From Patescibacteria group bacterium (GTDB lineage Bacteria > Patescibacteriota > Patescibacteriia > Patescibacteriales > JBAZCA01): DNA of 64,000 nt. The stretch lies in contig JBAZUL010000007.1 of NCBI GenBank assembly GCA_041661405.1, forward strand, positions 10,222 to 74,221, given 5' to 3'. Below the pieces are notes generated by a model. That model made no database searches. It was not told the origin of the DNA and saw only the letters and a program-made list of their open reading frames with translations. Positions 3,638 to 50,315 of the stretch are shown piece by piece. The position numbers and the translations under genes were made by a program. Numbering within the stretch: position 1 is the first letter of the stretch; each line of letters starts with the position of its first letter.

Positions 3638-4627
3638 TTATTTTACTATGGATAAAACCTTTTTAAGATTATCCGGTAGGGGAGCGCTGAAGGACAGTTT
3701 TTCCCCGGCCAGATTTTTAAATTCAAGTTTGACCGCGACTAAAAATATCCGTCCCAAATCAAGCATCCTGTTCTTTTCCCTGGTTTCCTTTGTGCTGTAT
3801 AAGCCGTCGCCGGCAATCGGATTGCCGTAAGCGGCGAGATGGCAGCGGATCTGATGGGTGCGACCGGTTTTGGGACGCGCTTCAAGCAGGGTGTAGTTTA
3901 TGAATCTTTTCATCACCGTGAAATCCGTTAAAGCGGGTTTGCCGGGCTGGTTAGCCGGCCGGGCGGCCATTTTTCCTTCCCGGGAACGCTCAATCGGGAA
4001 AGTGATTTTTCCCCGGTCTTTTTCCACCCGGCCGTAAACCAGGGCCAGGTAAGTTTTTTTTATTTCCCGCCGTTTAAACTGCGATTTAAGGTTTAGAAAA
4101 GACTTTTGGTTTTTGGCGATCACCATAACCCCGGAAACATCTTTGTCCAGGCGGTGGACGATTCCCGGCCGGGAGGGATCTTCGCCGACCAAAGATATTG
4201 CCGGATATTTTTTTACGACCAGGCTGATTAACGAAATTTGTTCGGGTTTTTCTTCGTCCGCCGGTGCGCCGGATCCGGACAGGTCAGTAGCGCCGTGCAC
4301 CGCTATGCCGGCTGGCTTGTTTATCACCATGAATTCATCATTGTCTTCAATAATTATTTTCTTTAAATTCGGGATTACGGCTTTCGCGGCTTTACGGTTT
4401 TTAGCGGCGGTTTTTTCTTTTTCCCGCGGCGTCTGGATTTTTTCCGGAAAAAATATTCCATCCCCTTCTTTTAAGAAATAATGGGGCGGGACGGTTTTTC
4501 CGTTGGCCGTTATCTTTCCGGCGCGGATAATTTTCTGCAGCCGGCTCCTTGAAAAGCCGGGAAGTTTTTCCGCGAGGAACAGGTCCAGCCTCTTTCCGTT
4601 TGCTTGGCTTTCAATTTTGTATTCCAT
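3638..4627 (-). CDS. rluD: RluA-family rRNA pseudouridine synthase (RluD-like)
   Basis: S4-like N-terminus (RLDLFLAEKLPGFSRSRLQKIIRAG), catalytic HRLDKDVSGVMV and C-terminal GRTHQIRCHLA. Confidence 0.85.
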   Translation of the reverse strand: MEYKIESQANGKRLDLFLAEKLPGFSRSRLQKIIRAGKITANGKTVPPHYFLKEGDGIFFPEKIQTPREKEKTAAKNRKAAKAVIPNLKKIIIEDNDEFMVINKPAGIAVHGATDLSGSGAPADEEKPEQISLISLVVKKYPAISLVGEDPSRPGIVHRLDKDVSGVMVIAKNQKSFLNLKSQFKRREIKKTYLALVYGRVEKDRGKITFPIERSREGKMAARPANQPGKPALTDFTVMKRFINYTLLEARPKTGRTHQIRCHLAAYGNPIAGDGLYSTKETREKNRMLDLGRIFLVAVKLEFKNLAGEKLSFSAPLPDNLKKVLSIVK

Positions 4628-4661
4628 TATGGTCGGTTTAGCGTGTTTTAAAAATTATTAA

Positions 4662-5846
4662 TTATTTTTCCAGGAGGATTTTTTCTAAATTTTCTACCAT
4701 AATATCACTCGTAAAGTTCTTGTCAACGAGCCGGGAGGCGTTTTCCCCGAGTTGGACCCTTAGATTCCGGTTTTTTGAAAGGCGGATTATCTGGCGGGCG
4801 AGCATCTCACTTAAATCCATTTCCAGGAGACTACCGGTCTTATTCTGGATGATGATGTCTTCAAAACCGGCTCCGGCCGGGGCAATGACCGGAATTCGGG
4901 CGGCCATGGCTTTAAGAATATTGGAAAAATCGGAGAGTAGCGGCGCGTCCGCGACCGAAACGAATATTTCAAAGCTCTTCAGCCATTTTTTCGCGGCGCT
5001 CATACTGGTTCCCTCTTTGCCGGACTGCCCGGCGGAGAGCGGTGCCGGGGAATCGGAAATCATCCAGACGCGGGTGTCAATTTTTAGTTTTTTTGCCACC
5101 CAGCTCAAATTCTTTTTTTCTTTTCCGTCCCCGACGACTATGAGCTGGAGGTTAGGAATGGCTGAAACGCAGGTATTCACGGCCTGAAAAAGGATTTCCA
5201 TTTTTTGCTTTTCATTCAGGTCGGCGATGGTGCCGATGGTAAAAAATTTTCGGTGAAAGTCGCCGTTGCCAGCCAATTCGCGAAAAAGGTCGGTCTGTTC
5301 TCGATCGGTTATTCTTATGCCAGGGTTAAGCGGGCGGATGTTTTCCCTTTCCACTCCTATCCTTAAAAGATTCTCCCGGTCCCGCGGAGAAAGGGAAATT
5401 ATTTTTGCCCGCCGACAGGCTCTAAGATATGTCTTTTCCGCTAGGCCGCCTTTTTTAAATGATTTTTCTCCCGGCAGGACAAGGAAAAAAAGCCGGGCTT
5501 TAAACAGGCGCTGGAGCGGAGCGAGTATCAGCTTTTCCCTTTGACCGACGACGATTATTATCGGCGCCGGTCGTTTCCGGTTAAAAAGTAAGAAGCGGAT
5601 CAGCGCGAAAATCCGTAAAAGCGGAAGTATTAAAAAAAAGAGAACCGCGCTTTTTCGGCTGTTTACTCCGGGCCCGCGAAAAAAATTTTTTCGGTCCGCG
5701 TTCAGTTTCCTAAGGATAGGATCGTTGATATCCTTGGCGGGAGCCCAGGCGTAAAAATTCCACTCTTTGTGGTAGAGTCCTTCCAGAGCGGCGTCCAGCA
5801 GGGGATCCAGCTGTCCGAATGACCCGGCTAACAAAATATTTTTCAT
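4662..5846 (-). CDS. GT-B fold glycosyltransferase (GT4/GT1-like)
   Basis: The C-terminal half has the GT4-type pattern (LQLIVVGDGKEK ... RIPVIAPAGAGFEDII). The N-terminal half carries a hydrophobic insert. Confidence 0.6.
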   Translation of the reverse strand: MKNILLAGSFGQLDPLLDAALEGLYHKEWNFYAWAPAKDINDPILRKLNADRKNFFRGPGVNSRKSAVLFFLILPLLRIFALIRFLLFNRKRPAPIIIVVGQREKLILAPLQRLFKARLFFLVLPGEKSFKKGGLAEKTYLRACRRAKIISLSPRDRENLLRIGVERENIRPLNPGIRITDREQTDLFRELAGNGDFHRKFFTIGTIADLNEKQKMEILFQAVNTCVSAIPNLQLIVVGDGKEKKNLSWVAKKLKIDTRVWMISDSPAPLSAGQSGKEGTSMSAAKKWLKSFEIFVSVADAPLLSDFSNILKAMAARIPVIAPAGAGFEDIIIQNKTGSLLEMDLSEMLARQIIRLSKNRNLRVQLGENASRLVDKNFTSDIMVENLEKILLEK

Positions 5847-5870
5847 GAATTAATGCTTAAGGAATTTAAT

Positions 5871-7286
5871 TTAACTAAGTTTTAACAAGGACAAGTCTTC
5901 TTTGCCAATCCCCTTTAACAGATATAGCCCCAAAAAATAAATTACGGCCGCGGCCGGCATAAGAAGGAAAATATTGATATCCCTAAAAGGGAGGATCAAG
6001 GCGTACATTACGGCCGCGGCCAGGACTGACTTCAAAAGGACGGCGAGCGAAGGAAAAAACCGCGCGGTTTTCCAGACAATGTAGAACGAAAAAAAAGCGA
6101 TAACGGTTTCCGAATAGACCGTTACCCAGGCGGCGCCAATGTAGGAATAGCGCGGGATGAAAATAAGATAGCCGATTATGGAACTCGCGGCCGTAAAGAT
6201 ATAGGCCGGGATGATGCTTTTTTGCTTGTCAGCGGCGATAACGGCGTGGGCGAAAATGTTTCCCAAAAATACGGCGGCTGAGGCAAGTATTAAAATGTTC
6301 AGCACCGGTCCGGCGGCCGTAAATTCCGGACCGGCCACCAGTCCCATCACCCGCTTTGAGGTCAAGAGAGTGCCAGCCGCCATGGGGCAGGCGAGAATAG
6401 CGAGGAGGTTAAACGATTTTTGGAGCACCCGGCCGAATTTTTCCTTATCGTTTTCCGACCAGGCCAGGGTAAGGATCGGCAGGATGATGCCGGAGAAAAG
6501 GAAAGGCAGGGTAATAAGCACGTCAATCACCTTGTAGGCCGCGCCGTAAATTCCGACTTCGTTGAGCGGCCGGACAAGAGAAAGGATGATGGTGTCGGTT
6601 TTCAGGTAAAGGAGGTTAAAAAAGATGGTCAGGGCGAGCGGCCAGGATTTTTTAATTATTTCCATCCAAAGCCCCCATTCAAAACCGAATCGGATTCGCG
6701 CGAGTCCCCGGGAGAAAATATAAAGGAAGAAGAAATTTACGGCCGCCGAAATTACGGCGGCCAGGAGAATGCCGTTTAAGCCGAAGCCGGCGCGCGCGGC
6801 GATAATTACTCCGGCTAAGAGGACGACCCTGCCCGCCATTTCGGCAAGGGAGACTTTCCCCATTTTTAAATATTTTTGGAACAAGCCGACGAAAATCTGG
6901 TTTAAGGCGGCGAAGAAAAAAGAAAGCGAAGCGATAATAACGCCAGCCTTAATAGCCGTCCCGTAAGGGAAGAGAAAAACGATTATCGGTCCGGCGGAAA
7001 GGAAAATGAGCGCCGAGAAAAAACGAAGTCCGAAAAGGTTGTTTAAGATTTTTTCTTCATCCGCTTCTTTCCGGCTGATAAGGCTGACGGTAACGAGCGT
7101 CAGCCCGAGATCGGCGATGATGGCGAAAAAGGAAAGGAAAGTGATAATTGTCGTGTATTCGCCGAACCCTTCGGGACCCAGATAATCGGCCATCACCCGG
7201 ATAGAAAAAAGTCCGAGAATCGTTGATACGATTTTCCCGGCTATCTGGATCATTGTATTTTGGGCGACTCTGGCTTTAAGGCTCAT
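5871..7286 (-). CDS. Wzx-like polysaccharide flippase (MOP/PST superfamily)
   Basis: 471 aa with about 12-14 TM helices. The N-terminal pattern NTMIQIAGKIVSTILGLFSIRVMADYLGPEGFGEY is typical of PST flippases. Confidence 0.75.
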   Translation of the reverse strand: MSLKARVAQNTMIQIAGKIVSTILGLFSIRVMADYLGPEGFGEYTTIITFLSFFAIIADLGLTLVTVSLISRKEADEEKILNNLFGLRFFSALIFLSAGPIIVFLFPYGTAIKAGVIIASLSFFFAALNQIFVGLFQKYLKMGKVSLAEMAGRVVLLAGVIIAARAGFGLNGILLAAVISAAVNFFFLYIFSRGLARIRFGFEWGLWMEIIKKSWPLALTIFFNLLYLKTDTIILSLVRPLNEVGIYGAAYKVIDVLITLPFLFSGIILPILTLAWSENDKEKFGRVLQKSFNLLAILACPMAAGTLLTSKRVMGLVAGPEFTAAGPVLNILILASAAVFLGNIFAHAVIAADKQKSIIPAYIFTAASSIIGYLIFIPRYSYIGAAWVTVYSETVIAFFSFYIVWKTARFFPSLAVLLKSVLAAAVMYALILPFRDINIFLLMPAAAVIYFLGLYLLKGIGKEDLSLLKLS

Positions 7287-7343
7287 GTCTAAATCTTACC
7301 TGTTTATTGTTAAAATTGCCAGTTTGGGGTATAATGGGGATAT

Positions 7344-7817
7344 ATGAAACACTCATTCTTAATTGAGAAGAAAAAAGCTCCCTTGAGGAAAAGGAATTTA
7401 TTTTTTGGCCTTTTAATTTCCTTTTTAATTTTCGGAGCCATGTTCCAGAACAATATAAAAACCGTTTTGGCCGACTCAAATCTCTGGACCATGGTTAAGG
7501 GTGGCGACCAGGGCGGCCTTTTAGGCGAAGTGGGAGACAAAGTTTACGGCGGCGCGGACAATTCCAAAGACGTCCGGCAGATAACAGCCGAGGTGATCCA
7601 GGTATTCCTTTCTTTTCTCGCCCTGATTTTTATTATTCTTTTAATACTCGGCGGTTTTAAATGGATGATGGCGCGCGGGGATGAAACTAAAGTTACTGAA
7701 GCGCGGAATCAAATCCTCCAGGCGGTCATCGGGCTCATCATCATGCTGGCCGCTTACGCCCTTACCTATTTTGTCTTCAATACCTTAAGCAATAACGTAA
7801 TGAGGAGTTTCCGGTAG
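7344..7817 (+). CDS. small two-helix membrane protein, TrbC/VirB2-like (T4SS-pilin-like)
   Basis: N-terminal signal/TM, then LGGFKWMMARGDETKVTEARNQILQAVIGLIIMLAAYALTYFVF. The C-terminal ~70 aa align with ORF 12177..12677. Confidence 0.5.
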   Translation: MKHSFLIEKKKAPLRKRNLFFGLLISFLIFGAMFQNNIKTVLADSNLWTMVKGGDQGGLLGEVGDKVYGGADNSKDVRQITAEVIQVFLSFLALIFIILLILGGFKWMMARGDETKVTEARNQILQAVIGLIIMLAAYALTYFVFNTLSNNVMRSFR

Positions 7818-7821
7818 CATT

Positions 7822-8826
7822 ATGATTTGGTCAGTCAAAAAATCTTTTTTTCTAACAGTCTTGTTTATTCTTCTGCTAGGGTTTATTTTTTCTCTCGGAC
7901 GCGATGTGCCTGAAAAAGATCTTCGCTACGGCCTTACTTTTTCAAAAAAGAAAGCCGCGGATCTCGGCTTTGACTGGAAAAAAGTTTATGCGGCCGTCCT
8001 TGACGAATTGGGAGCCAGAAGAATCCGCCTTCCGGCCTATTGGGACGAGGTTGAGGTGAATCAGGGCCAATGGAATTGGAGCGACCTGGACTGGCAGGTA
8101 AAAGAAGCCGAAAAAAGAAACGCGGAAATTATTCTCGCCATCGGCGGTCGTCTGCCACGCTGGCCCGAATGCCACTTTCCGGCTTGGACCGGAGGTTTGG
8201 AAAAAAATCAAAAGGAAACCGCTCTGTTGAAATATATCGCGGAAACTGTTAAAAGATACAAAGATAATGGAAGCGTAAAATACTGGCAGGTGGAAAATGA
8301 GCCCTTTTTAAACCATTTCGGCGACTGCCCGAAGCCGGACAAAAATTTTTTGGATGATGAAATCGCCCTGGTGAGGTCGCTTGATTCCCGGCCGATAATC
8401 ATAACCGACTCAGGCGAGCTATCGGTCTGGATTCCGGCTGCCCGGCGCGCTGATGTTTTCGGCACGACCATGTACCGCGACACCTATTCATCCCACCTCG
8501 GCATGTATATCCATTACCCGATTACTCCCGGTTTTTTTCATTTTAAAAAGAATCTGGCCAGACTGTTCGCCAGCCCGCGAAAATGGATCGTCATAGAACT
8601 CCAGGCCGAGCCCTGGTGCCCGGTGCCTTTTGAAGAAGCGACCCAAGCCGAACGCAACCGAACCATGAGCCTTTCAAAATTTAAAGAAATGATTGATTTT
8701 TCCTCTAAAACCGGATTCGGGGAGTTCTATCTTTGGGGCGCTGAGTGGTGGTATTGGGAACGGGAAGTTAATAATAATCCGGAAATCTGGGAATACGCGA
8801 AGGAGCTGTTTAATAGAAAATTTTAA
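7822..8826 (+). CDS. membrane-anchored clan GH-A (TIM-barrel) glycoside hydrolase-like protein
   Basis: N-terminal TM helix. YWQVENEPF contains the NEP acid/base-type motif. 334 aa. Confidence 0.5.
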   Translation: MIWSVKKSFFLTVLFILLLGFIFSLGRDVPEKDLRYGLTFSKKKAADLGFDWKKVYAAVLDELGARRIRLPAYWDEVEVNQGQWNWSDLDWQVKEAEKRNAEIILAIGGRLPRWPECHFPAWTGGLEKNQKETALLKYIAETVKRYKDNGSVKYWQVENEPFLNHFGDCPKPDKNFLDDEIALVRSLDSRPIIITDSGELSVWIPAARRADVFGTTMYRDTYSSHLGMYIHYPITPGFFHFKKNLARLFASPRKWIVIELQAEPWCPVPFEEATQAERNRTMSLSKFKEMIDFSSKTGFGEFYLWGAEWWYWEREVNNNPEIWEYAKELFNRKF

Positions 8827-8956
8827 TGTAAAATTTAAATATCAAAAAGTAAAATGACAAAGATAAAATGTAAAATTATTACAGAATAACGAATTCTAAA
8901 TTATTTTTAACTTTTTGCATTGTCATTTTTCATTTTGATTTTTACATTTTGATTTG
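8826..8956. repeat. AT-rich imperfect palindrome (~60-nt arms) centred on GAATTC 8891-8896
   Basis: Left arm: AATGTAAAA..ATCAAAAAGTAAAATGACAAAG. Reverse complement of the right arm: AATGTAAAAATCAAAATGAAAAATGACAATG. The element runs into the glucokinase start. Confidence 0.55.
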
Positions 8957-8962
8957 AAAATT

Positions 8963-9829
8963 ATGAATAAGGCGGACATCCAAAAAAAATATACCATCGG
9001 CGTTGACATCGGCGGAACCAACATGCGGGCCGTCCTGTTTGACGGCGAAAAAGTTATTGCCGATTATGAATTAGCTACGCCTAAAGATAATCTTGAGCAT
9101 TTTTTAATCATGCTTAAAGCCTTGGTTGAGCCTTTGATAGAGCGAGCCGAAGCTGACCAGGCGAAAATCAAAGGCATCGGTCTGGGCGTGGCCGGAGTGA
9201 TAAACCAAAAAGACCGGCGGGTGGTTAAGTCGCCGAACCTGCCAATTATTGACGACTCTAAGCTGGCTTTTCTTCTTGAATCAAAAATTAAAATTCCGGC
9301 CATGATTGACAACGACGCCAACTGCTTTGTTCGGGCCGAGGGAACGCTCGGGGCGGGAAAAAAAGCGAAAAACGTATACGGCGCGGTAATCGGCACCGGC
9401 ATCGGCGGCGGCTGGTGGCATGAAGGAAAAGTTTACGCCGGCTGGCACGGCGGAGCCGGCGAGCCCGGACACATGATAATTGACTATAAAGAGGGCATAA
9501 CCCTGGAAGAAGCTTACCATAAGCTCACTCAGGGCAACCCGGCGCAACTGGCTGAAGAAGCTTACCGAGGCGATACGCTCGCGGAAAAAGTTTTTTCCGA
9601 AATCGGCCATGATTTGGGCGTGGCGTTCGCCAACATCGTCAACATCCTTGATCCCGAAATCATCGTCATCGGCGGGGGAGTAGTAGAATCAAGCGACCTT
9701 TTTTTAAAGCAAGCGAAAAAGACCATGGCCAAATACGTTTTTTCGCCGGAAGCGAAAAAGATAAAAATCGTAAAATCCGAACTGGGAAATCTGTCTGGCG
9801 CCATCGGCGCGGCGCTGTTAGTCGCGTAA
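8963..9829 (+). CDS. glk: ROK-family glucokinase
   Basis: Motifs IGVDIGGTNMRAVLFD, DNDANCF and GGGWWHEGKVYAGWHGGAGEPGH. ATG 8963; the track begins at TTG 8954. Confidence 0.8.
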   Translation: MNKADIQKKYTIGVDIGGTNMRAVLFDGEKVIADYELATPKDNLEHFLIMLKALVEPLIERAEADQAKIKGIGLGVAGVINQKDRRVVKSPNLPIIDDSKLAFLLESKIKIPAMIDNDANCFVRAEGTLGAGKKAKNVYGAVIGTGIGGGWWHEGKVYAGWHGGAGEPGHMIIDYKEGITLEEAYHKLTQGNPAQLAEEAYRGDTLAEKVFSEIGHDLGVAFANIVNILDPEIIVIGGGVVESSDLFLKQAKKTMAKYVFSPEAKKIKIVKSELGNLSGAIGAALLVA

Positions 9830-9911: not shown

Positions 9912-10274
9912 TCAGCTAAAACATACCGTCAGCTCTTTATTTAGAGCCGAGGCGATTTTCTGCAGAGTGTCTATGGTTAAGTTTTGCTCTCCAGCTTCAA
10001 TCCTTCCGACGGCGCTTTGTTTTACGCCGATTCTCTTCGCCAGTTCAGCCTGGCTGATTTTTTTCTTTCTTCTTAAATCGGAGATAGCGAGCGAAACCTC
10101 CAGCTTCTTTTTTTCCAGTTCAACCATTCTGGCAAATTTTGGATTTTTCATCTTATCTTCTATAATCCGGCTAAAGTTTATTAGCGTAACCCCATGCACT
10201 TTTTCAAGATATTTTCGGAATACCTTGGCAGGGCAGGATTTACGGTTATTTTCTTTTTTAACTCTATTTCCCAT
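9912..10274 (-). CDS. XRE-family HTH protein, second HigA-like copy
   Basis: ISQAELAKRIGVKQSAVGRIEAGEQNLTIDTLQKIASAL. Paralogous to 10286..10609. The start is uncertain (ATG 10274, 10298 or 10325). Confidence 0.65.
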   Translation of the reverse strand: MGNRVKKENNRKSCPAKVFRKYLEKVHGVTLINFSRIIEDKMKNPKFARMVELEKKKLEVSLAISDLRRKKKISQAELAKRIGVKQSAVGRIEAGEQNLTIDTLQKIASALNKELTVCFS

Positions 10275-10285
10275 ACGTTTTATAG

Positions 10286-10609
10286 CTAGCAGGCGCATTT
10301 TTCTTTTTCGTGAATCGTTACGCAAAGTTTTCCGCCGAGAGCCGAAGCGATTTTATTTAAAAACGCCACGGTAAAATTTTCCCGTCCCGCTTCCAGCCGG
10401 GCGATATTGCTCTGCGTTGTCCCGATTTTTTTTGCCAGTTCCGATTGGCTCATGTTTCGAGCCTTTCTTAATTTAAGTATGGCGTAAGAGATTTCAAGCT
10501 GTTTGCCGTATTCGTCAAAATATTTTTTAAATTCCTTATCCTTAAGCCGTTCATTTAAATATTCCCGGAAGTCAGTCGCTTTGTATTTGCTTTTGATTTT
10601 TTTATTCAT
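10286..10609 (-). CDS. higA: HigA-like XRE-family antitoxin
   Basis: MSQSELAKKIGTTQSNIARLEAGRENFTVAFLNKIASAL. ATG 10609 overlaps the toxin stop (ATGAATAA). The track start 10618 is TTG. Confidence 0.7.
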   Translation of the reverse strand: MNKKIKSKYKATDFREYLNERLKDKEFKKYFDEYGKQLEISYAILKLRKARNMSQSELAKKIGTTQSNIARLEAGRENFTVAFLNKIASALGGKLCVTIHEKEKCAC

Positions 10610-10970
10610 ATATTTCAAGATTATTTATGGCGTCAAAATAATTGTTTTCAGCTCTTTTTATTTCTTCCGGCGGCGTTTTTTGAGTTTTCTTAAGAAAAGC
10701 ATGCAGTAAAATGATTTTTTTATTGATTAACGCGAAATAAAAAATCCTGTGTTTGTTGTTTGAAAAATCCACTCTAAGCTCTCTTATTTTTCCTTTAATA
10801 TGCTTTGAGTAGGGTTCATCGAGGTATCCTTCATTTTCCAGAAGCAGGTCGATAAATTTAAATATTTTTGCCTGATTTTTATTATTCTGCCTTTCAATGT
10901 ATTCCAGCGCAGGTTGTTTCCCGTTTCCGCTGTTAACGTAAAATCTAAGTTCGTAATTATTGTATATCAT
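10602..10970 (-). CDS. higB: HigB/Gp49-like (RelE superfamily) toxin
   Basis: KIRELRVDFSNNKHRIFYFALINKKIILLHAFLKKTQKTPPEEIKRA is the Gp49/DUF891 pattern. The gene lies upstream of its HTH partner (reverse TA order). Confidence 0.7.
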   Translation of the reverse strand: MIYNNYELRFYVNSGNGKQPALEYIERQNNKNQAKIFKFIDLLLENEGYLDEPYSKHIKGKIRELRVDFSNNKHRIFYFALINKKIILLHAFLKKTQKTPPEEIKRAENNYFDAINNLEIYE

Positions 10971-11089
10971 ATAAGATATATGACTGTCAAGGGTTAAACC
11001 CGGCCTTTTCCGCCCGAGGCGGAAAGGCTAGCTTTATCCGCGTTGCCCTCCTAACCAGAGGCGGGCAGGGTCGGCAGATATGAACTTAT

Positions 11090-11518
11090 CTATACCAATC
11101 TCCCGAGCTTGTCTTTAAAAATTTTCTCGGAAGTTTTAAAAAGACCTTTTACAAAATGCAGATATTCATCCGCCTGCTTTTCCGAAACGAGAGCCGCTCC
11201 GCCGTCGTAAAGCTCGGTATTACGGGTTTTTCTCATGCTGTTGCCGAAAATAAGAATATTTTTATCATCCAATATTTCCGAAGCTTTCTCAATAATTTTT
11301 ACATGATGACCCGTCCGGCTTGATACTTTATATCCGGACAGCGCTATTAGGCTGATTCCCAGTTTAATGAGAGCGTTATAGGAAAACTGGAATTTTACTT
11401 CAACAATCGCTGAACCGGAGGCAATTTTCAAATCTCTGTAAGCGGCCGCTAAAAATTTTTCCGTCTGGGGCTTATAATAATCAGCGCGTTTAAAATATTT
11501 GGGATCAAATTTAATCAT
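11090..11518 (-). CDS. HEPN-domain protein (partner of the MNT nucleotidyltransferase)
   Basis: 142 aa, helical. MRKTRNTELYDGG resembles the HEPN R-x-x-R-N-x-x-x-Y region. It has a 4-nt overlap with the upstream NTase gene. Confidence 0.5.
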   Translation of the reverse strand: MIKFDPKYFKRADYYKPQTEKFLAAAYRDLKIASGSAIVEVKFQFSYNALIKLGISLIALSGYKVSSRTGHHVKIIEKASEILDDKNILIFGNSMRKTRNTELYDGGAALVSEKQADEYLHFVKGLFKTSEKIFKDKLGRLV

Positions 11519-12054
11519 ATCAGGCGGATATGCTTATTAATAAGGATGTTTTTCAGCAGTTCGGCTTTTTTCTTTTTGCCGAATTCTTTTTCCGTCATAT
11601 CTATAATATTAATCTCGCGGCCGAATTTTTTTTGCAGTTCCGCTATTTCCGCTTGCGCGTCCAGCGATTTGTGAGAACCGACCAATAGTAAATCTATATC
11701 GCTTTCCGCGCTTAACCGGTCATTAGCGTAAGAGCCAAAAATAACGGCCATGTTAAGGCCTTTGATTTTCTTAAGTTTTTCTTTTAAGAGGTTTTCCAGC
11801 CCATAGCTTTTTTGGAATATTTTTTTAAGTTCGGCTAAAAAGGGGTAGCCCCGGTTGATTTTATAGAGGCTCAGGTTGCCTTTTTTATTTTTTACGATTA
11901 TTCCTTCCTTTTCCAGTTCCGCCAGTTTTCTCGCCAAGTTTCCCCGATCCAGGCCGAATTTTCTTGACATCTCGTTAAGATACAGTTCTTCGCGCGGATT
12001 TAAGAGGAGGTAGCCTAAAACTTCTTTTGTTATTTTTGATTTAAAATTGAGCAT
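11515..12054 (-). CDS. winged-HTH fused minimal nucleotidyltransferase (MNT)
   Basis: N-terminal wHTH (LYLNEMSRKFGLDRGNLARKLAELEKEGII) plus an NTase motif VIFGSYANDRLSAESDIDLLLVG. Confidence 0.75.
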   Translation of the reverse strand: MLNFKSKITKEVLGYLLLNPREELYLNEMSRKFGLDRGNLARKLAELEKEGIIVKNKKGNLSLYKINRGYPFLAELKKIFQKSYGLENLLKEKLKKIKGLNMAVIFGSYANDRLSAESDIDLLLVGSHKSLDAQAEIAELQKKFGREINIIDMTEKEFGKKKKAELLKNILINKHIRLI

Positions 12055-12176: not shown

Positions 12177-12677
12177 TCACTTCGCCCCCAAAACATTCGT
12201 CAAAACGAACGTTATAAGCGCGTAGGCGGTAAAAATAATAACCAGCCCGAGAGCGGCCCAGATCATAGTGTCCCGCCCTTTCTTCACCTTATCCGCGTTG
12301 CCCATGGCGGTCATCCACATAAATCCGCCGAAGATAAACATGGCGAGGGCGAGAGAACCGACGAGCCCGAGAGCGGCCGAGATAACTTTGCCGATCAAAA
12401 CCTGCGGCGTCCCCGCGTCCGGCAGGGGGTTGTCCAGGGTGACGGGGGCGCCGGAGGTGCCTTGATAAGGTTGTCCTTGACTAGCGCCACAATATGAATA
12501 ACCTGTGTAAGGACTTGGACAGGGTTGACTACACGTGCCGTTTGGATCTGTTCCTACCCAGGTCGGCGTTTTTCCATCGCTGGCCATACAATAGCATTCA
12601 CAACCTGCCGCGAAAGCGAAGTTTGAAAATAGTGCTAGAAAAAAAATAATAATTAGAAAAGATGCAATTTTTCTCAT
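12177..12677 (-). CDS. TrbC/VirB2-like (T4SS-pilin-like) membrane protein with a Cys-rich N-terminal ectodomain
   Basis: Signal peptide, then 6 Cys in CECYCMASDGKTPTWVGTDPNGTCSQPCPSPYTGYSYC. The paralogous core is FGGFMWMTAMGNADKVKKGRDTMIWAALGLVIIFTAYALITFVL. Confidence 0.5.
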   Translation of the reverse strand: MRKIASFLIIIFFLALFSNFAFAAGCECYCMASDGKTPTWVGTDPNGTCSQPCPSPYTGYSYCGASQGQPYQGTSGAPVTLDNPLPDAGTPQVLIGKVISAALGLVGSLALAMFIFGGFMWMTAMGNADKVKKGRDTMIWAALGLVIIFTAYALITFVLTNVLGAK

Positions 12678-12730
12678 AAAATAGATATTAATTATAAGTT
12701 CTCTGCAGTCATTTTAGCACAACCAAAGCA

Positions 12731-12776
12731 AAGAAAAAAGGGCGCTGCACGTTCGTGAGAACTGCGTTGCGCCCTT
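12731..12776 (-). terminator. possible intrinsic terminator after the orphan operon
   Basis: On the minus strand: GGGCGC ... GCGCCC stem with a 23-nt loop, followed by TTTTTTC. The large loop makes this weak. Confidence 0.35.
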
Positions 12777-12798
12777 TCTAGTTAACCTTCTCCGGGGG

Positions 12799-14367
12799 TT
12801 AACTTTTGTAAACCTCTATGACAATTTCCAGGTCCATATGCAGGGCCTCAATCTGGAATTCGCCTAGAGGCTTGATGTCCTTCATTCCCTTGTGGGTTAC
12901 CACAAAAGGCTTCCGGCCATCTTTGGGAAAGAACTTCATATCCAACATGTCCACCCGGACAATGGAACCGTCCGGGGTTTTCGCGTAGACATTGAATCGG
13001 CAGTCTCCGCGAATTGAACGAACCGGGGTTTTTTCACCTTCCCGTGTGATATACGGGTGTATCCCCGGTCCGAGTGTTGTTGAGGTGGGGCCACCGCCTC
13101 CGCTTTTATTCCCCCAGCCGGAAAAGGGAAAGGATAACCATTTTTTCGTCTGGTCATCCATCCTTTCCTCGCCTAAAGATTTTATTCTTTCGGCTTGGGG
13201 GATCGATCGGTCGGACTGAACCCCGTCTTTCAAGGCGGTGACTTTCGCCCGTTGAGCTTTGATCCAGACGTACGGGCGGGCGGAGTCGCCTTCGGCTACG
13301 GTCGCCCAGTAGGCTTTGTCAGCGGCCTTTTGGGCAATGACCCAGGTTTTGGGATCGGTCGGATCTCCGGCCGCGACCTTTGTCCAGTAAATCTGATCCT
13401 TGGCTTCTTGGGCCAAGATCCAGATTTCTCCGGACGGGTTGGCGGGCGACCAGCGATCAATCTCATCCCAGTAAACCCGGTCAGCCTCGGAGACAGTGTC
13501 CTTGGCGTTGGCCTCGCGCTCCATCCTCTCCAGTACTCGGGCTTCGGACGTAGCTTCCCGGGTCAGCTCAAATGTGTAAATCGTGAGTTGGCCGGTGCCT
13601 TGAAGCCAAAGGGTTTGGATTAGGAAGTACCAGATGAAAATTGAGATAGGTACCTGAATCCAAGCCCCCCATTTATGCCAGAATGGAGTTTTGGGGTCGC
13701 TGAGACCAAAAGCATACCAGACTGCCAGCCCGTGAGCTACCAGGAATACGCACGCCGTGTAGGCCGTGCCTCTAATGTCCTGGTAATAATCCCACCCACG
13801 GGATAATGCTATATATAAACCGGCGACATGGTTAATCAAGAGCCAGACGGGAACGCCGGTGATATTTTTCCCATCTTTGTACCACCAGTCCGGGGCTTTT
13901 TTCAGAACGACCGTCGTACCGATTAAGGTACAGAGAACGATTGTCCAGCCCCAAATGTCCGAGCTTGAGGAAGTGATGCCGATGGCGTCAATTGTCAGAA
14001 ATATGCCGCAGAAAATAGCGGCACAGATGACAACATTCTCCATCAGCTTGCTTTTAGCTCGGTCGGCTATCCAATATAGAGCGACGGATAAAATCGTAAT
14101 AATAATCCAGTTGCAGATTATTGATACGATTGCGCCGCCCAATGGGTGCCAACTCATTGCGACAAACTTCACCCGGATAACCCAGTAAGACAGGTAAGGT
14201 CCGGCATAAAGCGTCGCAACTACAGTTAGGCTGATAGTTACGATTCCTAACAGCAGAATACCTAATCCTCTCCAGAAACCATTTTCTTTTATGGTATTCT
14301 TGGTCAAGCCGGAAAGGAACCAGGCAACTCCTGCGCATATACAGACTGCCGTCAGCATTGCTTGCAT
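12799..14367 (-). CDS. orphan polytopic membrane protein with 3 tandem ~26-aa repeats and a beta-rich C-terminal domain
   Basis: 522 aa with about 10 TM helices. The repeats have consensus xDxxYWxxVAxGDxxxPxxW[IV]xAQxA. SD GAGGAGG lies 7 nt upstream of ATG 14367. No family recognised. Confidence 0.7.
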   Translation of the reverse strand: MQAMLTAVCICAGVAWFLSGLTKNTIKENGFWRGLGILLLGIVTISLTVVATLYAGPYLSYWVIRVKFVAMSWHPLGGAIVSIICNWIIITILSVALYWIADRAKSKLMENVVICAAIFCGIFLTIDAIGITSSSSDIWGWTIVLCTLIGTTVVLKKAPDWWYKDGKNITGVPVWLLINHVAGLYIALSRGWDYYQDIRGTAYTACVFLVAHGLAVWYAFGLSDPKTPFWHKWGAWIQVPISIFIWYFLIQTLWLQGTGQLTIYTFELTREATSEARVLERMEREANAKDTVSEADRVYWDEIDRWSPANPSGEIWILAQEAKDQIYWTKVAAGDPTDPKTWVIAQKAADKAYWATVAEGDSARPYVWIKAQRAKVTALKDGVQSDRSIPQAERIKSLGEERMDDQTKKWLSFPFSGWGNKSGGGGPTSTTLGPGIHPYITREGEKTPVRSIRGDCRFNVYAKTPDGSIVRVDMLDMKFFPKDGRKPFVVTHKGMKDIKPLGEFQIEALHMDLEIVIEVYKS

Positions 14368-14388
14368 ATCATTCCTCCTCGTAAAACG

Positions 14389-15507
14389 TCAGGGTTTTTT
14401 GTTTTTGCCGAGCGGATCCTTGCGGAACCACTCCTTCTCTTCCTGCTTAAGGAAGTTCCAGAGCGTTCCCGCCGCTTCTTTCCCGCCGTCCTTGATTGTT
14501 TCCATTGCCTGATGGGCACCGACAGGAACGGAGATTTCGGTGATTATCACCTCGATCTTACCGTCCTGCGCTAACTTAAGACGGTGCTGGCCTCTCATAA
14601 CCGGGGTGTAGAATATCGTCCCCGGTTTGATTTGGCCGTCTTCCGGATAGTTAGTCATCCCGACGATCGGGATGCTAAGGTCTCCGGTAAACGGAGCCAT
14701 CGCCTTGGTCACCTTGAGGGTGGCTTTGGCAAAGGGCATTACCCCTGTCCACGGAACAGGTAAGGGGCTTGGGGGCTCTTGGAGCAAATAGATAAATGTC
14801 CAATCCCCGTCAATCTTGCGATCGACGGTGATGGCCTGAGCTTCCCAATAGCCGCGGTTCCAGTCCTCAAGATATTTTTCCGCCGCGCTGTACTGCGACG
14901 GATCCCAGAGATCCCAGTTGAACAAATTTTGCCATGAAGGGATGGGAGCTGGACTCCCACCTGATCCAGGAGTGCCGGGCGTAGGTGTAGTTCCGCCACT
15001 TCCAGGTGTGGATCCTCCGGGAGCTGAAGGAGTCGTTCCGCCTGGGGTTGTTCCACTTCCAGGCGTTCCTGCGGCCGGGTTGCCTCCGAGCCAAGGCGGC
15101 ATATTGTCACCCCACCAGCCTTTAATTGTAAAAGGCACGGGTGCCGGATTTCCGCCAAGGGCAACTGGCATATTTTCCTGCCACCAGCTCTTGACCGTCC
15201 CGGTTCTCGAGGTTGGTGATAAAGAAGAAGTGAGTACCAGCGCAACTACCAAAAAAACAATTGCGCATGCGCCGATGAATCTTCTTCTATCTGCCATCAA
15301 CCAGGCTATCCCGGTTGGAATTCTGCGGACGAGAGCCGTGGCGCCTGTGAATAGCCCGCGAATGGCGCCCATAATTAGCGCGCCTCCGAACCACCAAACT
15401 GCCACACCGATTAGGGCGAGACAGGCAAGGGTTAATAATGGATGTGACCAAAGTGACGAAAAAAATCCCCAGCCGATATTAAATAAACCGCTAATGACAC
15501 TCCACAT
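14389..15507 (-). CDS. orphan membrane protein with a Gly/Thr/Pro-rich linker
   Basis: N-terminal TM helices. Two 23-aa repeats (WWQENMPVALGGNPAP / WWGDNMPPWLGGNPAA) and a ~50-aa GTP-rich linker. ATG 15507 is preceded by GGGAGAG. An alternative GTG 15525 overlaps the upstream stop (GTGA). Confidence 0.65.
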   Translation of the reverse strand: MWSVISGLFNIGWGFFSSLWSHPLLTLACLALIGVAVWWFGGALIMGAIRGLFTGATALVRRIPTGIAWLMADRRRFIGACAIVFLVVALVLTSSLSPTSRTGTVKSWWQENMPVALGGNPAPVPFTIKGWWGDNMPPWLGGNPAAGTPGSGTTPGGTTPSAPGGSTPGSGGTTPTPGTPGSGGSPAPIPSWQNLFNWDLWDPSQYSAAEKYLEDWNRGYWEAQAITVDRKIDGDWTFIYLLQEPPSPLPVPWTGVMPFAKATLKVTKAMAPFTGDLSIPIVGMTNYPEDGQIKPGTIFYTPVMRGQHRLKLAQDGKIEVIITEISVPVGAHQAMETIKDGGKEAAGTLWNFLKQEEKEWFRKDPLGKNKKP

Positions 15508-15521
15508 GTCTCTCTCCCTTT

Positions 15522-16487
15522 TCACTTCGTTGGGGTGATTTTGCGTTTTCCAGCCTCAAAGAGGTGATCTATCGTCTCAATAATCGCCTCATAGAGGAAA
15601 TATCTGCCGGTTGTGAGGCCAGTGGTTCCTTTGGTCTTGGCCTCTTCTCGGATCTTCTTTATCTTTCCGGCCAGCTCGCCGGGACCGGCAACAATCAGAA
15701 TCAAAATGATTGTCATGAACCACTTTATAATATCCAGTAAGTGATTACCGGTGGCGAGCGCCCGTTCTGCCTCGGCCAGCCCATGTTTTATTAGACCGTT
15801 GTCTACGAGTCCGGCTACAGCCCTAACCATTGCAGCATGGTCAACACCGGCCAGATACAGGACAACGAGTCCCACGTTTATTAGGATCATGTAAAAACAT
15901 ATGTCCAACATAATCCATGGGTAGGTGTCTTTTTTCTTCACTTCCTCATAAACGTAGGTCGGCGGGCCAAGAGAAAAAAACAAATTAGCCGCTATAAACA
16001 GCGGGGCTCGGGCCAAACTCTCCGATACGAGAGAGAAAATAAAGGCGACAAAGCCTACCATTAGGCCTTTTCGCTTATCTATCTTCCCGCTCCAGGTGGA
16101 GAAGAAGCCCACGATCGCCCCGTAAATCAGCGACACCCCCACATCCCCGAGGACGTGGGTTAGGAAAAGGACGACGAGGGACAAAAAATACATCAGAAAA
16201 AGGAGACCTCCTTTTTCCTTCAGTATGTCCCTTACGCCCTTTACCCGGTCATAGAGCTGATTTCCTTTTACGTCTTTAGCCAGCATCTGCTGGCCAGATT
16301 TCAGCTCTTTGACCCGCTCTTTTTTCTCTCCTCTCCAGAGGGTTATTGCCTTTGTCCGGTACCCGGGCTTGGGCGGGGCGACTGTGTTGTCGTCGTTCCA
16401 GCCGTGGTAAAGAGCCCATAGCCCCCACATAGCCAGACCGAAAACCGGGCCAACGACCACAATGACGAACAAAAAAATGCTTAACAT
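15522..16487 (-). CDS. orphan polytopic membrane protein
   Basis: 321 aa. One N-terminal TM, a basic loop, about 6 further TM helices and a charged C-terminal tail. SD AAAGGA precedes ATG 16487. No family recognised. Confidence 0.65.
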   Translation of the reverse strand: MLSIFLFVIVVVGPVFGLAMWGLWALYHGWNDDNTVAPPKPGYRTKAITLWRGEKKERVKELKSGQQMLAKDVKGNQLYDRVKGVRDILKEKGGLLFLMYFLSLVVLFLTHVLGDVGVSLIYGAIVGFFSTWSGKIDKRKGLMVGFVAFIFSLVSESLARAPLFIAANLFFSLGPPTYVYEEVKKKDTYPWIMLDICFYMILINVGLVVLYLAGVDHAAMVRAVAGLVDNGLIKHGLAEAERALATGNHLLDIIKWFMTIILILIVAGPGELAGKIKKIREEAKTKGTTGLTTGRYFLYEAIIETIDHLFEAGKRKITPTK

Positions 16488-16852
16488 GATAAATCCTTTC
16501 TGTCCCTTATGGGACTGAAGAAAACCTAAACTATATTCTAAATTTTACCCGCCAAAGAGACGATCCCTTCAGCGACTTAACTAATTTAACTGTCTGAACC
16601 ACTGATTAATACTGAATCCACTTGATTTCACTGAAAAAAATCAGTGCAATCTGCCTGCCGGCAGGCAGGTCGGGATAATCAGTGAAAATCAGTGGCTCAG
16701 ACGATGTTTATTCAATTGTCAAAGAACCTCGTTTGTAGTGTTGGACTAAAAAAACCAAAACCGTCTTCTTGACCGGCTACTGGAGCCGGCATCCCGATTG
16801 CTCGGGATAAAGATGATTTTTTGCTAATTTCAGCCCTTAAATCAAAGAACTA

Positions 16853-16897
16853 CCCCGCGCCTACAGGCACGGGATGATTTGCTCACACGCAAATCAT
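16853..16897. repeat. dispersed double-hairpin repeat, copy A
   Basis: CCCCGCGCC-TACA-GGCACGGGA, then TGATTTGC-TCACAC-GCAAATCA. Homologous to 30904-30949 and 62200-62245. Confidence 0.7.
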
Positions 16898-16961
16898 TTG
16901 ACGGCCTGCGCTCTTTATGGTGCATTTTCAGCCGACTGATAACTATAGCATAAATTCAAAA

Positions 16962-16989
16962 ACTCGTCAATATGATGACGAGTTTTTTT
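16962..16989 (+). terminator. orphan intrinsic terminator (also usable on the minus strand)
   Basis: ACTCGTCA-ATATGA-TGACGAGT followed by T6 (8-bp perfect stem). No annotated plus-strand gene lies upstream. Confidence 0.6.
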
Positions 16990-23772: not shown

Positions 23773-25005
23773 TTACTTTTGAGCCAGTTTTTCCTGTAAA
23801 GAGTGGATCACTACCGTGTTAGCGATATTTTGCCAGAGAACCCGACTTTTCCCGGTTTTATTCGGGTTACTGCCGTATTCCCGCTGGTGCGCTTCAAGGA
23901 CTTGGCCTACGAATGTTGCCCCGTGCTTTTTTAAGAATACTTTTGGATCTACCGCCCAATCATATTGGCCGTTCTTCTCCTCAAGCAAGAACCGGAGAGC
24001 TGCAAAGACCGGCATTGAAAAACCCTTGGATAATTTGTACCTCGCCAATTGGGAGGTAAAGGGCAATCTAATATTTACCGCTTTCCTTTTTTTCCCTTTG
24101 CCGCGGTGAGTCTCAATACCGTTCCAGTTGCCAGCTCTCTTTACTATCTTTGATTGTACGGCGAAATCTTCAAAATTAAGGTATAAATATTCGTATAATT
24201 CAACTATAGAAGGGAGAATGGAATATAGCTTTTCGTAAGTAGGCCGGTTAGCGTCGTTCATCCATTTATTAAAGCAACTCGTTACTCCCGTATATGCAAT
24301 GGTTGGCTGGTGGTTATTGTCATACAAATCCTTGTTAAGGGCTGTCATTAGGGCGGTGATCTCTTCGATTGGAAAAGTCGCGGCATCATCTCCTTTATTT
24401 TCATTTTCGAAATAGATTATCTTATCGCTATATTTTCCTAGTGCCTTCTTTATCCCTTCAAACTTTCTTTCAAGGTTTGCTATTGATTTTTCGGCCACCT
24501 GTACGCTGGTATTTCGCGCCCTTGCTAGTTTGGTAGCAAATTGGTCCGCTCCTTCTATAATCGTGACGAATATAGGAAGGTCGGACAGCGCCTCATCGTC
24601 CATTTTGTTTTTAAGCACTGCATAGCTGTGCCCCCCGTCTACGAGCCCGCCTTTGGGGTTTCCGTCCTCGTCGGCTCCGAAGTCAATAATAACTTTCCTT
24701 TCCCCCTTGTCGGAATTAGGAAAAATGACTTTTTCCGCAGATAGGAATAGGCCACGATTGCAGTCGGTGAAATATTCAGGTTCTATTTCCAGCGTTTCTC
24801 TCATTTGCTTGCATGGTTTGGCATCTGGATCTGGTTGCCGGGGGTTGGGAGTGGTTGGGATATTGGCTGGCAAATTCTTAAGCAAAATAAAAAGGAAATG
24901 CGTCTTAATGACTTCGTTTCCTTCTGGGTCGTAGTAGCGTAGCTTCCTACTGATTGTTCTGGCTTGAGAATACTCAAATTCCAAAACCTGTTTTGGTTGT
25001 GTCAT
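23773..25005 (-). CDS. AIPR-like / ParB-fold (DGQHR-like) abortive-infection-type protein
   Basis: PNPRQPD...MRETLEIEPEYFTDCNRGLFLSAEKV and GGLVDGGHSYAVL recall the AIPR pattern (N-x-R ... NNGIT ... [ND]G-x-[QH]-[TS]). Recognised from memory only. Confidence 0.4.
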   Translation of the reverse strand: MTQPKQVLEFEYSQARTISRKLRYYDPEGNEVIKTHFLFILLKNLPANIPTTPNPRQPDPDAKPCKQMRETLEIEPEYFTDCNRGLFLSAEKVIFPNSDKGERKVIIDFGADEDGNPKGGLVDGGHSYAVLKNKMDDEALSDLPIFVTIIEGADQFATKLARARNTSVQVAEKSIANLERKFEGIKKALGKYSDKIIYFENENKGDDAATFPIEEITALMTALNKDLYDNNHQPTIAYTGVTSCFNKWMNDANRPTYEKLYSILPSIVELYEYLYLNFEDFAVQSKIVKRAGNWNGIETHRGKGKKRKAVNIRLPFTSQLARYKLSKGFSMPVFAALRFLLEEKNGQYDWAVDPKVFLKKHGATFVGQVLEAHQREYGSNPNKTGKSRVLWQNIANTVVIHSLQEKLAQK

Positions 25006-44761: not shown

Positions 44762-45152
44762 GGGGATGATCGGCTTCGATAATAAAACTCTCTTGATTAT
44801 ACGCGAGGCGCGGGCATGGGTTACCGCGTTATCAATGCCCATAAACCATAAGTGCAAATTCTTTTGCCAGCAAAGTGCGTAATGGCGTTTTCGCCGTTCC
44901 GGCTTTCGCTCCTGTTGTAGCTTAAAGCTCACAACCATTCGCCCCGGGATTCCTGATACCGGTCAGCGGGTGTAATATCATCAGGATGCATTCGTTCGCC
45001 GCCTTTGCGAACGGATAAAGACTTAAGAGGCTGGTCGCTATTTATTTCGCCCGGTTTAATAGAATAGCGGCGAGATTTTTAAGTCGGGATATTCTCGTAA
45101 ACGCATATCAGGAGATTTATTAGACGCGGGTTCGATTCCCGCCATCTCCACC
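44762..45152 (+). ncRNA. ssrA: tmRNA (ssrA)
   Basis: 5' GGGGATGATCGGCTTCGA pairs with 3' ...GGGTTCGATTCCCGCCATCTCCACC, with a G3-U wobble in the acceptor. The candidate tag ORF GCA 44854 to TAA 44923-44925 encodes ANSFASKVRNGVFAVPAFAPVVA. Confidence 0.85.
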
Positions 45153-45161
45153 TGGAGAACT

Positions 45162-45245: not shown

Positions 45246-45289
45246 CAGGCTTAAAGGCTGATTTTTTCGGCCAATCAGTAAAAGCAAGC

Positions 45290-49465: not shown

Positions 49466-49526
49466 AATCGTTCTAATGTTTGCTTGATTTTATCCGTTTG
49501 TTTAGATATACTTAAATTATTACAGC

Positions 49527-50297: not shown

Positions 50298-50315
50298 TTT
50301 AAGTTTGATGATTGA

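Follow-up and report, generated by a model that had tools for sequence, protein, structure and literature searches.

Few lineage-specific proteins of the Patescibacteria, bacteria that are now genetically tractable, are as abundant as the VirB2-like pilins, and the type IV secretion systems (T4SSs) of monoderm bacteria are normally without a pilus. In T4SSs of the R388 type, the polytopic platform for VirB2 assembly is VirB6/TrbL/PrgH. The locus considered here is from a Patescibacteria group bacterium (GenBank assembly GCA_041661405.1, contig JBAZUL010000007.1, positions 10,222 to 74,221 of the forward strand; this whole stretch of 64,000 nucleotides is called the window, and positions are counted from its first letter), and contains a VirB2-like pilin gene preceded by three genes, A, B and C, for membrane proteins. 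The closest described systems are the Patescibacteria T4SSs with arrays of VirB2-like pilins, as in the Saccharimonadia and S. epibionticum (SEML1_0006-0019; PMC12102498), and the window pilin belongs to the same PF18895/VirB2-like family. Such pilins occur widely among Patescibacteria, and in many cases their genes lie apart from virB4, the two being separate in about 40 % of the assemblies that hold both (PMC12102498). In S. epibionticum they are essential and located in the T4SS cluster (PMC10633639), and in several Patescibacteria classes homologues of VirB6 and VirB8 are undetectable, 'suggesting extreme divergence' (PMC12102498). Unlike the pilins of these arrays, the window pilin does not lie beside virB4, TrsD, PrgI or virB6, and its constant companions are three membrane proteins without T4SS homology.

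We propose that A, B and C form with the pilin gene a four-gene envelope cassette that acts as a membrane platform or partner for the VirB2-like pilin, a reading to which we give a probability of roughly 0.45. The cassette is probably surface-exposed and restricted to a small Patescibacteria lineage. The evidence presented comprises the gene order and its conservation, the identity of the pilin, the predicted topology of the proteins, and a common C-terminal module together with its position. An earlier reading of this DNA (the original prediction) had picked out A, B and C as an operon of orphan, Trp-rich membrane proteins with internal repeats, lying next to a Cys-rich pilin-like gene. The main features are as follows.

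15522 to 16487, minus strand: gene A, a polytopic membrane protein of 321 aa, ATG start
14389 to 15507, minus strand: gene B, a bitopic membrane protein of 372 aa, ATG start
12799 to 14367, minus strand: gene C, a polytopic membrane protein of 522 aa
13240 to 13485, minus strand: three tandem repeats of about 26 aa in C (xDxxYWxxVAxGDxxxPxxWIxAQxA), aa 295-376, in a predicted extracellular stalk
12802 to 13074, minus strand: C-terminal beta-rich module of C, about 90 aa (PGxHxYxxxxGExT...RFNVY...FP...FxIxA...EIVIEVY)
12177 to 12677, minus strand: VirB2-like T4SS pilin of 166 aa, the 'Cys-rich pilin-like' gene of the original prediction

Conservation of the gene order

When 5.8 billion proteins were searched by a word-indexed method with A, B and C, only the queries themselves and one other contig (L001) were found. 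The L001 genes are in an order identical to that of the window, A-B-C-pilin, beside the same UPF0020 methyltransferase and YchF genes, and their products are 38 % (A), 62 % (the C-terminal domain of B), 43 % (C) and 49 % (pilin) identical to those of the window. Only eight more distant relatives (E-values 1e-13 to 3e-5) came to light when HMMER was run exhaustively with a C profile against 1.84 billion cluster representatives, which makes a total of about 10 relatives of C among these 1.84e9 proteins; scans of the GTDB species representatives with the B and C alignments found none.

A PF18895 pilin gene lies directly downstream of the C homologue in 12 of the 12 related loci. In L002 and L004-L012 the C homologues are only 15-21 % identical, and the pilin gene begins about 100-180 nt after each. 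Wherever the sequence extends far enough, two or three more genes without a Pfam match lie upstream in the eight distant loci. A-like, B-position and C-like genes occur in the same order in L004-L008 and L010-L011, at about 15-28 % identity, and a C-like gene is present in L002, L009 and L012; the A-B-C-pilin order is maintained down to about 20 % identity. The relationship of the A proteins is recognizable both in L004/5 (28 % identity, BLAST E-value 1e-19) and, by hhalign, in L007/L010 (90.6 % probability, E-value 1.3e-6). The B-position genes elsewhere have the architecture of window B and a C-terminal [FY]Wxx[DN]PxGK motif in common with it, but the hhalign comparison is not significant (E-value 0.015) and their homology is not statistically established.

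These findings bear out the suggestion that the trio is inherited as a unit, the order being identical in L001 and kept in L004-L008 and L010-L011. It had also been asked whether the three genes occur together with or without the gene at 12177-12677; the trio is conserved, always with the pilin downstream, and the gene that had been taken as a mere neighbour is a PF18895 pilin that belongs to the conserved unit.

The pilin

By its sequence, the product of 12177-12677 is a bona fide member of PF18895 with the canonical VirB2 layout. It matches the Pfam profile at positions 3-71 of 71 (E-value 7.8e-10; 39.1 bits against a cutoff of 26.6), and it is named 'pilin' by NCBI. A signal peptide is followed by a variable ectodomain with six Cys residues and by two transmembrane (TM) helices joined by a basic loop; the hydropathy segments are at aa 4-22, 98-116 and 141-159, and the loop sequence GNxxKVxKG[KR] is conserved in 8 homologues. 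The pilin, at 43-65 % identity, is better conserved than any other member of the cassette. The NCBI annotation begins at Met31 and gives a protein of 136 aa without the signal peptide, but the L003 and L001 homologues support the length of 166 aa. The two-TM core also resembles NCBIfam NF045849 (Mbov_0395 pilin-like; E-value 3e-8), the pilin-like conjugal transfer protein of Mycoplasma integrative and conjugative elements, although here the 33.2 bits fall short of the family cutoff of 40 bits and there is no such element, relaxase or VirB4 in the context.

A C-terminal module encoded upstream of pilins

An alignment of this pilin subtype was used to scan the JGI metagenomes; it found more than 529 relatives, and 80 loci were retained. 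Hidden Markov models (HMMs) of the A, B and C families match none of these 80 pilin loci, and the three families are thus confined to a small lineage. In the 28 loci with at least 3 kb of upstream sequence the pilin gene is nonetheless almost always preceded by one to three co-directional genes for membrane proteins. By BLAST these upstream genes are linked to the C family solely through the C-terminal ectodomain, and an iterated HMM of a beta-rich C-terminal module of about 76 residues converges on 34 ORFs with the theme PGxYxFxLKxGExTxW..P....Y..SS....Y..I..DG......P....FKI.A.....I.V. Of 57 independent metagenome loci with at least 500 nt upstream of the pilin, 28 have an ORF encoding the module that lies on the pilin strand and ends 4-126 nt 5′ of the pilin ORF. 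The anchors that carry it vary, consisting of three TM segments, six or seven TM segments, or a signal peptide with TPR.

Judged by profile comparison, the C-terminus of window C belongs to this pilin-upstream beta module, a family that is defined here. When the C-termini of window C and of its L003 counterpart were compared with the 34-member module profile, hhalign gave a probability of 91.3 % (E-value 9.4e-7, 69 of 76 columns), and the HMM alone gives E-values of 8e-5 for L003 and 6e-5 for L001. The window module ends at the stop codon of C, directly upstream of the PF18895 pilin gene and co-directional with it. It has no relative in Pfam or among PDB sequences, the best match being the galectin congerin, which is not significant (E-value 0.018). 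No description of the module or of its fixed position before PF18895 pilins was found in the searchable literature, including PMC12102498 and PMC10633639. Although the pilin family is already known, the module, its position upstream of pilins, and the A, B and C families are undescribed. The label 'orphan' that the trio had been given therefore fits A, B and the membrane domain of C, which are confined to their small lineage, but not the C-terminal domain of C, which is widespread beside such pilins.

Two of the related loci show how the parts of C and the pilin vary. In L003 the protein P0009 carries a module of the window type (54 % identical to the end of C) on a different, unrelated membrane anchor, and the L003 pilin is the closest to that of the window (65 % identity), including the CECYC...CSQPC ectodomain. 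In L001 the window-type anchor is kept and the module has diverged, and the pilin ectodomain has diverged too. In this single case module and pilin ectodomain vary as they would if their functions were matched to each other.

A further arrangement is seen in other Patescibacteria lineages, in L034 (5973-7100), L070 (5969-6988) and clusters c6/c9 of the pilin-upstream proteins, where an SPFH/Band7 gene lies two genes upstream of the same type of pilin. This SPFH protein scores just above the Pfam cutoff, and the order of the cassette is SPFH, a module protein with three TM segments, and pilin. One large pilin subfamily is consistently paired with an upstream gene bearing an undescribed C-terminal module, and in the window lineage with two more conserved membrane proteins as well. 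The presence of the module upstream of a pilin provides a simple genomic rule by which more such partners may be found.

The A, B and C proteins

Hydropathy predicts about six to seven TM segments in A, two in B and eight in C. Positive-inside counts predict an external location for the long C-terminal parts of B and C and an internal one for the basic segments of A; in C there are 11 Lys/Arg residues in the odd loops and 4 in the even loops, and the loop between the two TM segments of B holds six. The predicted topology thus supports the idea that large parts of B and C lie outside the membrane. All three products had been described as polytopic and Trp-rich; A and C are indeed polytopic and B is bitopic, and the Trp content is high in B (5.4 %) and C (5.2 %) but not in A (2.2 %).

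The A protein has a basic loop of 66 aa after the first TM segment and a basic C-terminal tail, both predicted to be cytoplasmic. Members of the A family in L010 (4856-6100) and L007 (7679-9004) have an additional beta-rich N-terminal extension of about 140 aa, without a signal peptide, which is missing from window A.

In B, the N-terminal TM hairpin is followed by two WW..NMP..LGGNPA repeats, a Gly/Thr/Pro linker of about 50 aa and a C-terminal domain of about 180 aa. The last of these is conserved, is predicted to be extracellular and ends in W-F-x-x-D-P-x-G-K, and the repeats and the linker are specific to the window. In C, an eight-TM domain (aa 1-256) leads into a charged helical stalk (ELTRE..ERMEREANAK), the three 26-aa repeats and the beta-rich module; the invariant positions of the family are P57, W141, W162, G191-W192, W217, P225, Q256, G259, R270 and R284. 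The original prediction was right about the repeats of both proteins and about the linker of B: local alignment of the B repeats scores 76, against 21 +/- 5 for shuffled sequences, and that of the C repeats 51-70 against 19-20 +/- 4, no shuffle among 2000 scoring as high in either case. Tandem Repeats Finder (TRF) detected no tandem repeat in the DNA of the B and C repeats, which have diverged too far and are visible at the protein level. The number of repeat units in C is three in the window, one in L001 and none in the distant relatives, so the length of the stalk differs between lineages. Variation in repeat number between relatives is typical of surface proteins.

Profile and sequence searches found no relative of A, B or C in Pfam, NCBIfam or among PDB sequences, in agreement with the earlier statement that they belong to no recognizable family; neither a match to a characterized family nor a lack of conserved synteny was found for any of the three. 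The PDB sequence and profile searches, which included the module, gave only chance-level matches (CrcB, SecE, Ypt7, flagellin and, at E-value 0.018, congerin), and the Pfam and NCBIfam scans gave only sub-threshold noise (SIP, RAMA, PAW, MAG2810). When the A, B and C family profiles were compared by hhalign with six clusters of other pilin-upstream membrane proteins nothing significant was seen, the best probabilities being 24 % (C family with c12) and 15 % (A family with c5). These comparisons place A, B and the membrane domain of C in no described family.

The N-terminal two-TM region of P0005 (L001 8994-9980), the B homologue of L001, has a sub-threshold similarity to Saf_2TM, the SAVED-fused 2TM effector domain (E-value 5.6e-5; 23.5 bits against a cutoff of 29.5). 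Window B has no Saf_2TM match, and we regard the resemblance as one common to TM hairpins in general. The layout of B is also loosely similar to that of SPFH/Band7 proteins (TM segment, globular domain and charged C-terminal helix), but B has no match to Band_7 (PF01145) at E-values up to 1, and hhalign comparison of the B profiles with the SPFH-containing clusters c6 and c9 gives a probability of less than 1 %.

Possible role of the cassette

In the reading that we prefer, a strong promoter and a long structured leader would drive A-B-C, a terminator would follow C, and the pilin gene would depend on its own start signals. The A protein, with about seven TM segments, would be mostly embedded in the membrane with its basic segments in the cytoplasm; B would project outward through its TM hairpin, a wall-spanning Gly/Thr/Pro linker and its conserved ectodomain, and C would do so through its eight TM segments, helical and repeat-containing stalk and C-terminal beta module. 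C would be this lineage's version of a widespread class of pilin partners, made up of a variable membrane or TPR anchor and a C-terminal beta module of about 75-90 aa. The A-B-C platform would dock the membrane-inserted pilin, with the C module binding the variable Cys-rich pilin ectodomain, and would either nucleate or anchor polymerization of the pilin into a surface filament or present the pilin at the surface. Such a role would be VirB6-like without detectable VirB6 homology, and the filament or complex would serve contact with a host cell. We infer the physical interaction, the formation of a filament and the coupling to a VirB4 ATPase encoded elsewhere. The module of C with the pilin ectodomain, A, B and the SPFH proteins found elsewhere are candidates for the missing pilin assembly, anchoring or receptor machinery. 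Of the surface complex inherited as a unit that was originally suggested, co-inheritance and the predicted exposure of B and C are supported; the composition of the unit and its setting in an accessory patch are not.

Several observations weigh against a platform for a T4SS-type pilin. There is no VirB4, VirD4 or other T4SS gene within the 64-kb window, and no T4SS component in the flanks of L001, L004, L007, L010 or about 30 metagenome loci (8-kb flanks), where the large P-loop ORFs encode ABC-F, FtsK, PBP1, GyrB and similar proteins and not VirB4; since no T4SS genes lie near any examined cassette, a tie to machinery for secretion or pili is hypothetical. Pfam and PDB sequence searches detect no similarity between VirB3/6/8, TrbL or PrgH/I/L and A, B or the TM domain of C. 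The HMM-only module score of window C is weak (E-value 0.034) and its membership depends on the profile-profile result, the co-variation of module and pilin rests on a single informative comparison, and a second pilin gene of the window (7344-7817) is without such an upstream partner. Because of the terminator between them, co-transcription of C and the pilin gene is not required. Finally, the AlphaFold2 models of C (mean pLDDT 37.3, pTM 0.23) and B (pLDDT 38.0), each built from a two-sequence alignment, are unusable as fold-level evidence.

The lack of VirB4 near every examined cassette would also be accounted for by a T4SS-independent envelope complex, in which the PF18895 protein is a small two-TM subunit or ligand and not a polymerizing pilin. 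This is essentially the attachment or exclusion idea of the original prediction with the pilin added; the complex might act in host attachment, in envelope organization or in a polysaccharide-linked process, with the stalk and module of C as its exposed head. The recurrent neighbours, which are housekeeping genes and envelope genes (Polysacc_synt flippase/GT1), are in keeping with it, as is the SPFH/Band7 scaffold in the cassettes of other lineages, which is typical of membrane microdomain complexes and not of T4SSs; the faint resemblance of the module to the beta-sandwich lectin congerin points the same way but is not significant. Nevertheless, the pilin exceeds the Pfam T4SS_pilin gathering threshold and has the canonical VirB2 topology, and in the one Patescibacterium tested such pilins are essential and lie in a T4SS cluster (PMC10633639), and we consider a complex of this kind somewhat unlikely. 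It is unlikely, too, that we are dealing with a widespread VirB4-independent cassette, in which a beta-module protein on an interchangeable anchor pairs one-to-one with a pilin and is enough to assemble or display it; the further element of that proposal, that accessory membrane proteins help (A and B here, SPFH elsewhere), we hold to be equally doubtful. If such a cassette does exist, monoderm ultra-small bacteria would have in it a new and minimal way of building a surface filament or host-contact organelle, and the specificities of module and pilin ectodomain would be matched and diversify together.

A closer link to known secretion systems would follow if A, B and C were extremely diverged T4SS inner-membrane homologues that split from virB4 together with virB2, C corresponding to an extended VirB6/PrgH, B to VirB8/PrgL, and A to a VirB3-like or second VirB6-like protein. 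Like VirB6/TrbL/PrgH, C is polytopic (eight TM segments) with a large C-terminal hydrophilic domain and is encoded beside virB2, A has about seven TM segments, and the role proposed for C as the membrane docking or assembly site of the pilin would be analogous; the 'extended VirB6' proteins, to which C may be compared, have at least five TM segments and a large C-terminal hydrophilic domain (PMC12857230). B is bitopic and resembles VirB8/PrgL/TcpC in having an N-terminal TM segment, a linker and a conserved extracytoplasmic domain of about 180 aa, and the failure to detect VirB6 and VirB8 in several Patescibacteria classes (PMC12102498) would allow for homologues of this kind. Compared by sequence and not by fold, however, C has no similarity to VirB6: nine members of the C family and five of the A family gave no match to TrbL (PF04610), PrgH or VirB6 at Pfam E-values up to 5, and the C- and A-family profiles matched no solved chain of VirB6 or of any other T4SS component among all PDB sequences at E-values up to 10. 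Neither has B a Pfam or PDB sequence match to VirB8 (PF04335) or to solved VirB8-like chains, whose ectodomains are NTF2-like, and the long C-terminal helix in which its low-confidence model ends is atypical of these. VirB3 and PrgI are small proteins (about 100 aa) that have one or two TM helices and are usually encoded next to virB4; A matches neither and, with 321 aa and about seven TM segments, is about three times the size of VirB3. There is no virB4 nearby, and none of the examined loci has the cassette beside virB4. The replacement of the C-type anchor by three TM segments or TPR in other lineages does not fit a conserved VirB6 core, and the A, B and C HMMs match none of the 80 loci with the same pilin type, so that this explanation appears to us quite improbable. 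Least probable by far, and largely refuted, is the idea that the trio is mobile cargo, with an exclusion or defence function for example, in an island acquired together with toxin-antitoxin (TA) modules. Two such modules (Gp49/HTH and nucleotidyltransferase/HEPN-like) do lie directly downstream of the pilin gene, and the G+C content of the block is somewhat above the window mean, at 0.50-0.54 for the four genes against a gene mean of 0.452 (SD 0.047). The elevation noted in the original prediction is therefore real, but it is not diagnostic, as the G+C at third codon positions (GC3; z-scores +0.7 to +1.4) does not set the four genes apart from other core genes of the window, and the true compositional outliers are the TA genes (0.31-0.40). 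The flanking gene order is conserved in distant relatives and L001 has the flank upstream of A, all of them without the window TA genes; pattern scans of IMG/VR viral contigs found no relatives of C or of the pilin, and a tblastn search of 72,556 plasmids with C gave no match. Horizontal acquisition of the cassette is accordingly rejected on GC3 and synteny, and the locus, on the same sequence comparisons, is a vertically inherited chromosomal context, because L007 and L010 keep the flanking order, and L002 part of it. The supposed accessory patch is a conserved neighbourhood into which the TA genes have been inserted.

Gene calls and transcription signals

The three minus-strand ORFs are co-directional and tightly packed, with exactly the coordinates first given for them, and the calls agree with the NCBI and JGI annotation of this metagenome-assembled genome ('Patescibacteria group bacterium'), in which B has 372 aa. 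Shine-Dalgarno sites were found as described 5′ of A (AAAGGA), of the B ATG (GGGAGAG) and of C (GAGGAGG). B and C are separated by 21 nt, as had been stated, and for the junction of A and B either a GTGA overlap or a gap of 14 nt had been offered. The gap version, with the ATG start of B, is the one that holds: a start at the GTG at 15525 would make B 378 aa long, but there is no Shine-Dalgarno site upstream of this codon, for which reason the ATG at 15507 is preferred, and the ATG also agrees with the database protein. The hairpin and T-run proposed after the last gene are likewise present, at 12735-12779 (-27.7 kcal/mol, z = -3.35), and an equivalent hairpin and T-run follows the C homologue in L001.

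16942 to 16970, minus strand: sigma-70-type promoter, TTGACG-17 nt-TATAGT, with an extended -10 (TGc) and 10 of 12 hexamer matches
16700 to 16935, minus strand: structured 5′ leader or separate small RNA, four hairpins in a multiloop followed by a U-run
16708 to 16724, minus strand: leader motif CTTTGACAATTGAATAA, which is kept directly 5′ of the A-like gene in distant loci
12729 to 12779, minus strand: terminator-like (intrinsic) hairpin and U-run between C and the pilin gene

The promoter (16970-16942), which is close to consensus, is located 455 nt upstream of A and its -35 hexamer overlaps a terminator-like hairpin; a TTGACx-17-TGCTATAAT architecture is also found upstream of the A-like gene in L001, L004-6, L007 and L010. 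The leader that follows it, of about 235 nt, has a multiloop closed by GCCGUC/GACGGU and a minimum free energy of -82.7 kcal/mol (z = -5.0), and none of 200 shuffled sequences is as stable. Its first 90 nt or so are conserved with L001, and no known RNA was found with Rfam in the 610-nt region upstream of A. The element at 16700-16935 may be a leader that acts as an attenuator or like a riboswitch, or else a small RNA in its own right. A motif with the consensus CTTTGACAAYTnAAWAA is shared by the window (16708-16724), L001 (about 7935-7955), L004 (about 8128-8145) and L007 (about 7635-7655), loci whose proteins are only about 25 % identical, and in the window the motif and the start codon of A are held apart by about 190 nt of CACTGATT/CAGTGA-type repeats. 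We note two copies in the window, 96 % identical, of a 27-nt double-hairpin element, GATTTGCGTGYGAGCAAATCATCCCG..., one at 16869-16895 in the A leader and the other at 62220-62246 downstream of an SBP_bac_5 gene; the element has the appearance of a small dispersed repeat.

The ATG of the pilin gene is 121 nt after the stop codon of C. As there is no Shine-Dalgarno site and a TATAAT box is located 13 nt 5′ of the ATG, the gene appears to have its own promoter, which suggests a separate, highly expressed transcript with a very short leader or nearly none.

The chromosomal neighbourhood

The region on the far side of the pilin gene from C contains a window-specific insertion and, beyond it, a second pilin gene.

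9912 to 12054: AT-rich insertion, specific to the window, with an extra HTH gene, a Gp49 (HigB-like)/HTH pair, and a pair consisting of a nucleotidyltransferase gene and a gene for a 142-aa, possibly HEPN-like protein
7344 to 7817, plus strand: second T4SS_pilin gene, a paralogue (Pfam PF18895, E-value 1.6e-8)

The TA genes at 9912-12054 are absent from the syntenic loci of relatives, and by this comparison the TA modules are a local insertion specific to the window. The order pilin, Avd-like, ROK kinase, glycosidase, second pilin, Polysacc_synt, GT1 and pseudouridine synthase in L007 and L010 corresponds to window 3638-9829, part of which is also retained in L002. The product of the second pilin gene is 44 % identical to the orthologous second pilin in L002, L007 and L010. 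In the window it is followed by a gene for a GH10/GH42-like TIM-barrel protein (the two together occupying 7344-8826) and by the ROK kinase gene (8954-9829); this trio and the Polysacc_synt/GT1 genes are syntenic in L007 and L010 and partly so in L002, and the Polysacc_synt flippase gene is a recurrent neighbour across the loci. The glycosidase beside the second pilin might be a helper that cuts wall or host glycans.

Some other genes of the window may be mentioned. A protein of the AIPR (abortive-infection phage-resistance) family is encoded at 23773-25005, about 7 kb from the cassette, and Rfam identifies a tmRNA gene followed directly by two tRNA genes at 44762-45361. A run of genes for de novo purine biosynthesis, including PurL-like FGAR amidotransferase, PurF, PurD and adenylosuccinate lyase, extends from 46439 to 58519; Patescibacteria are generally described as being without nucleotide synthesis, and such a run is unusual in this group.

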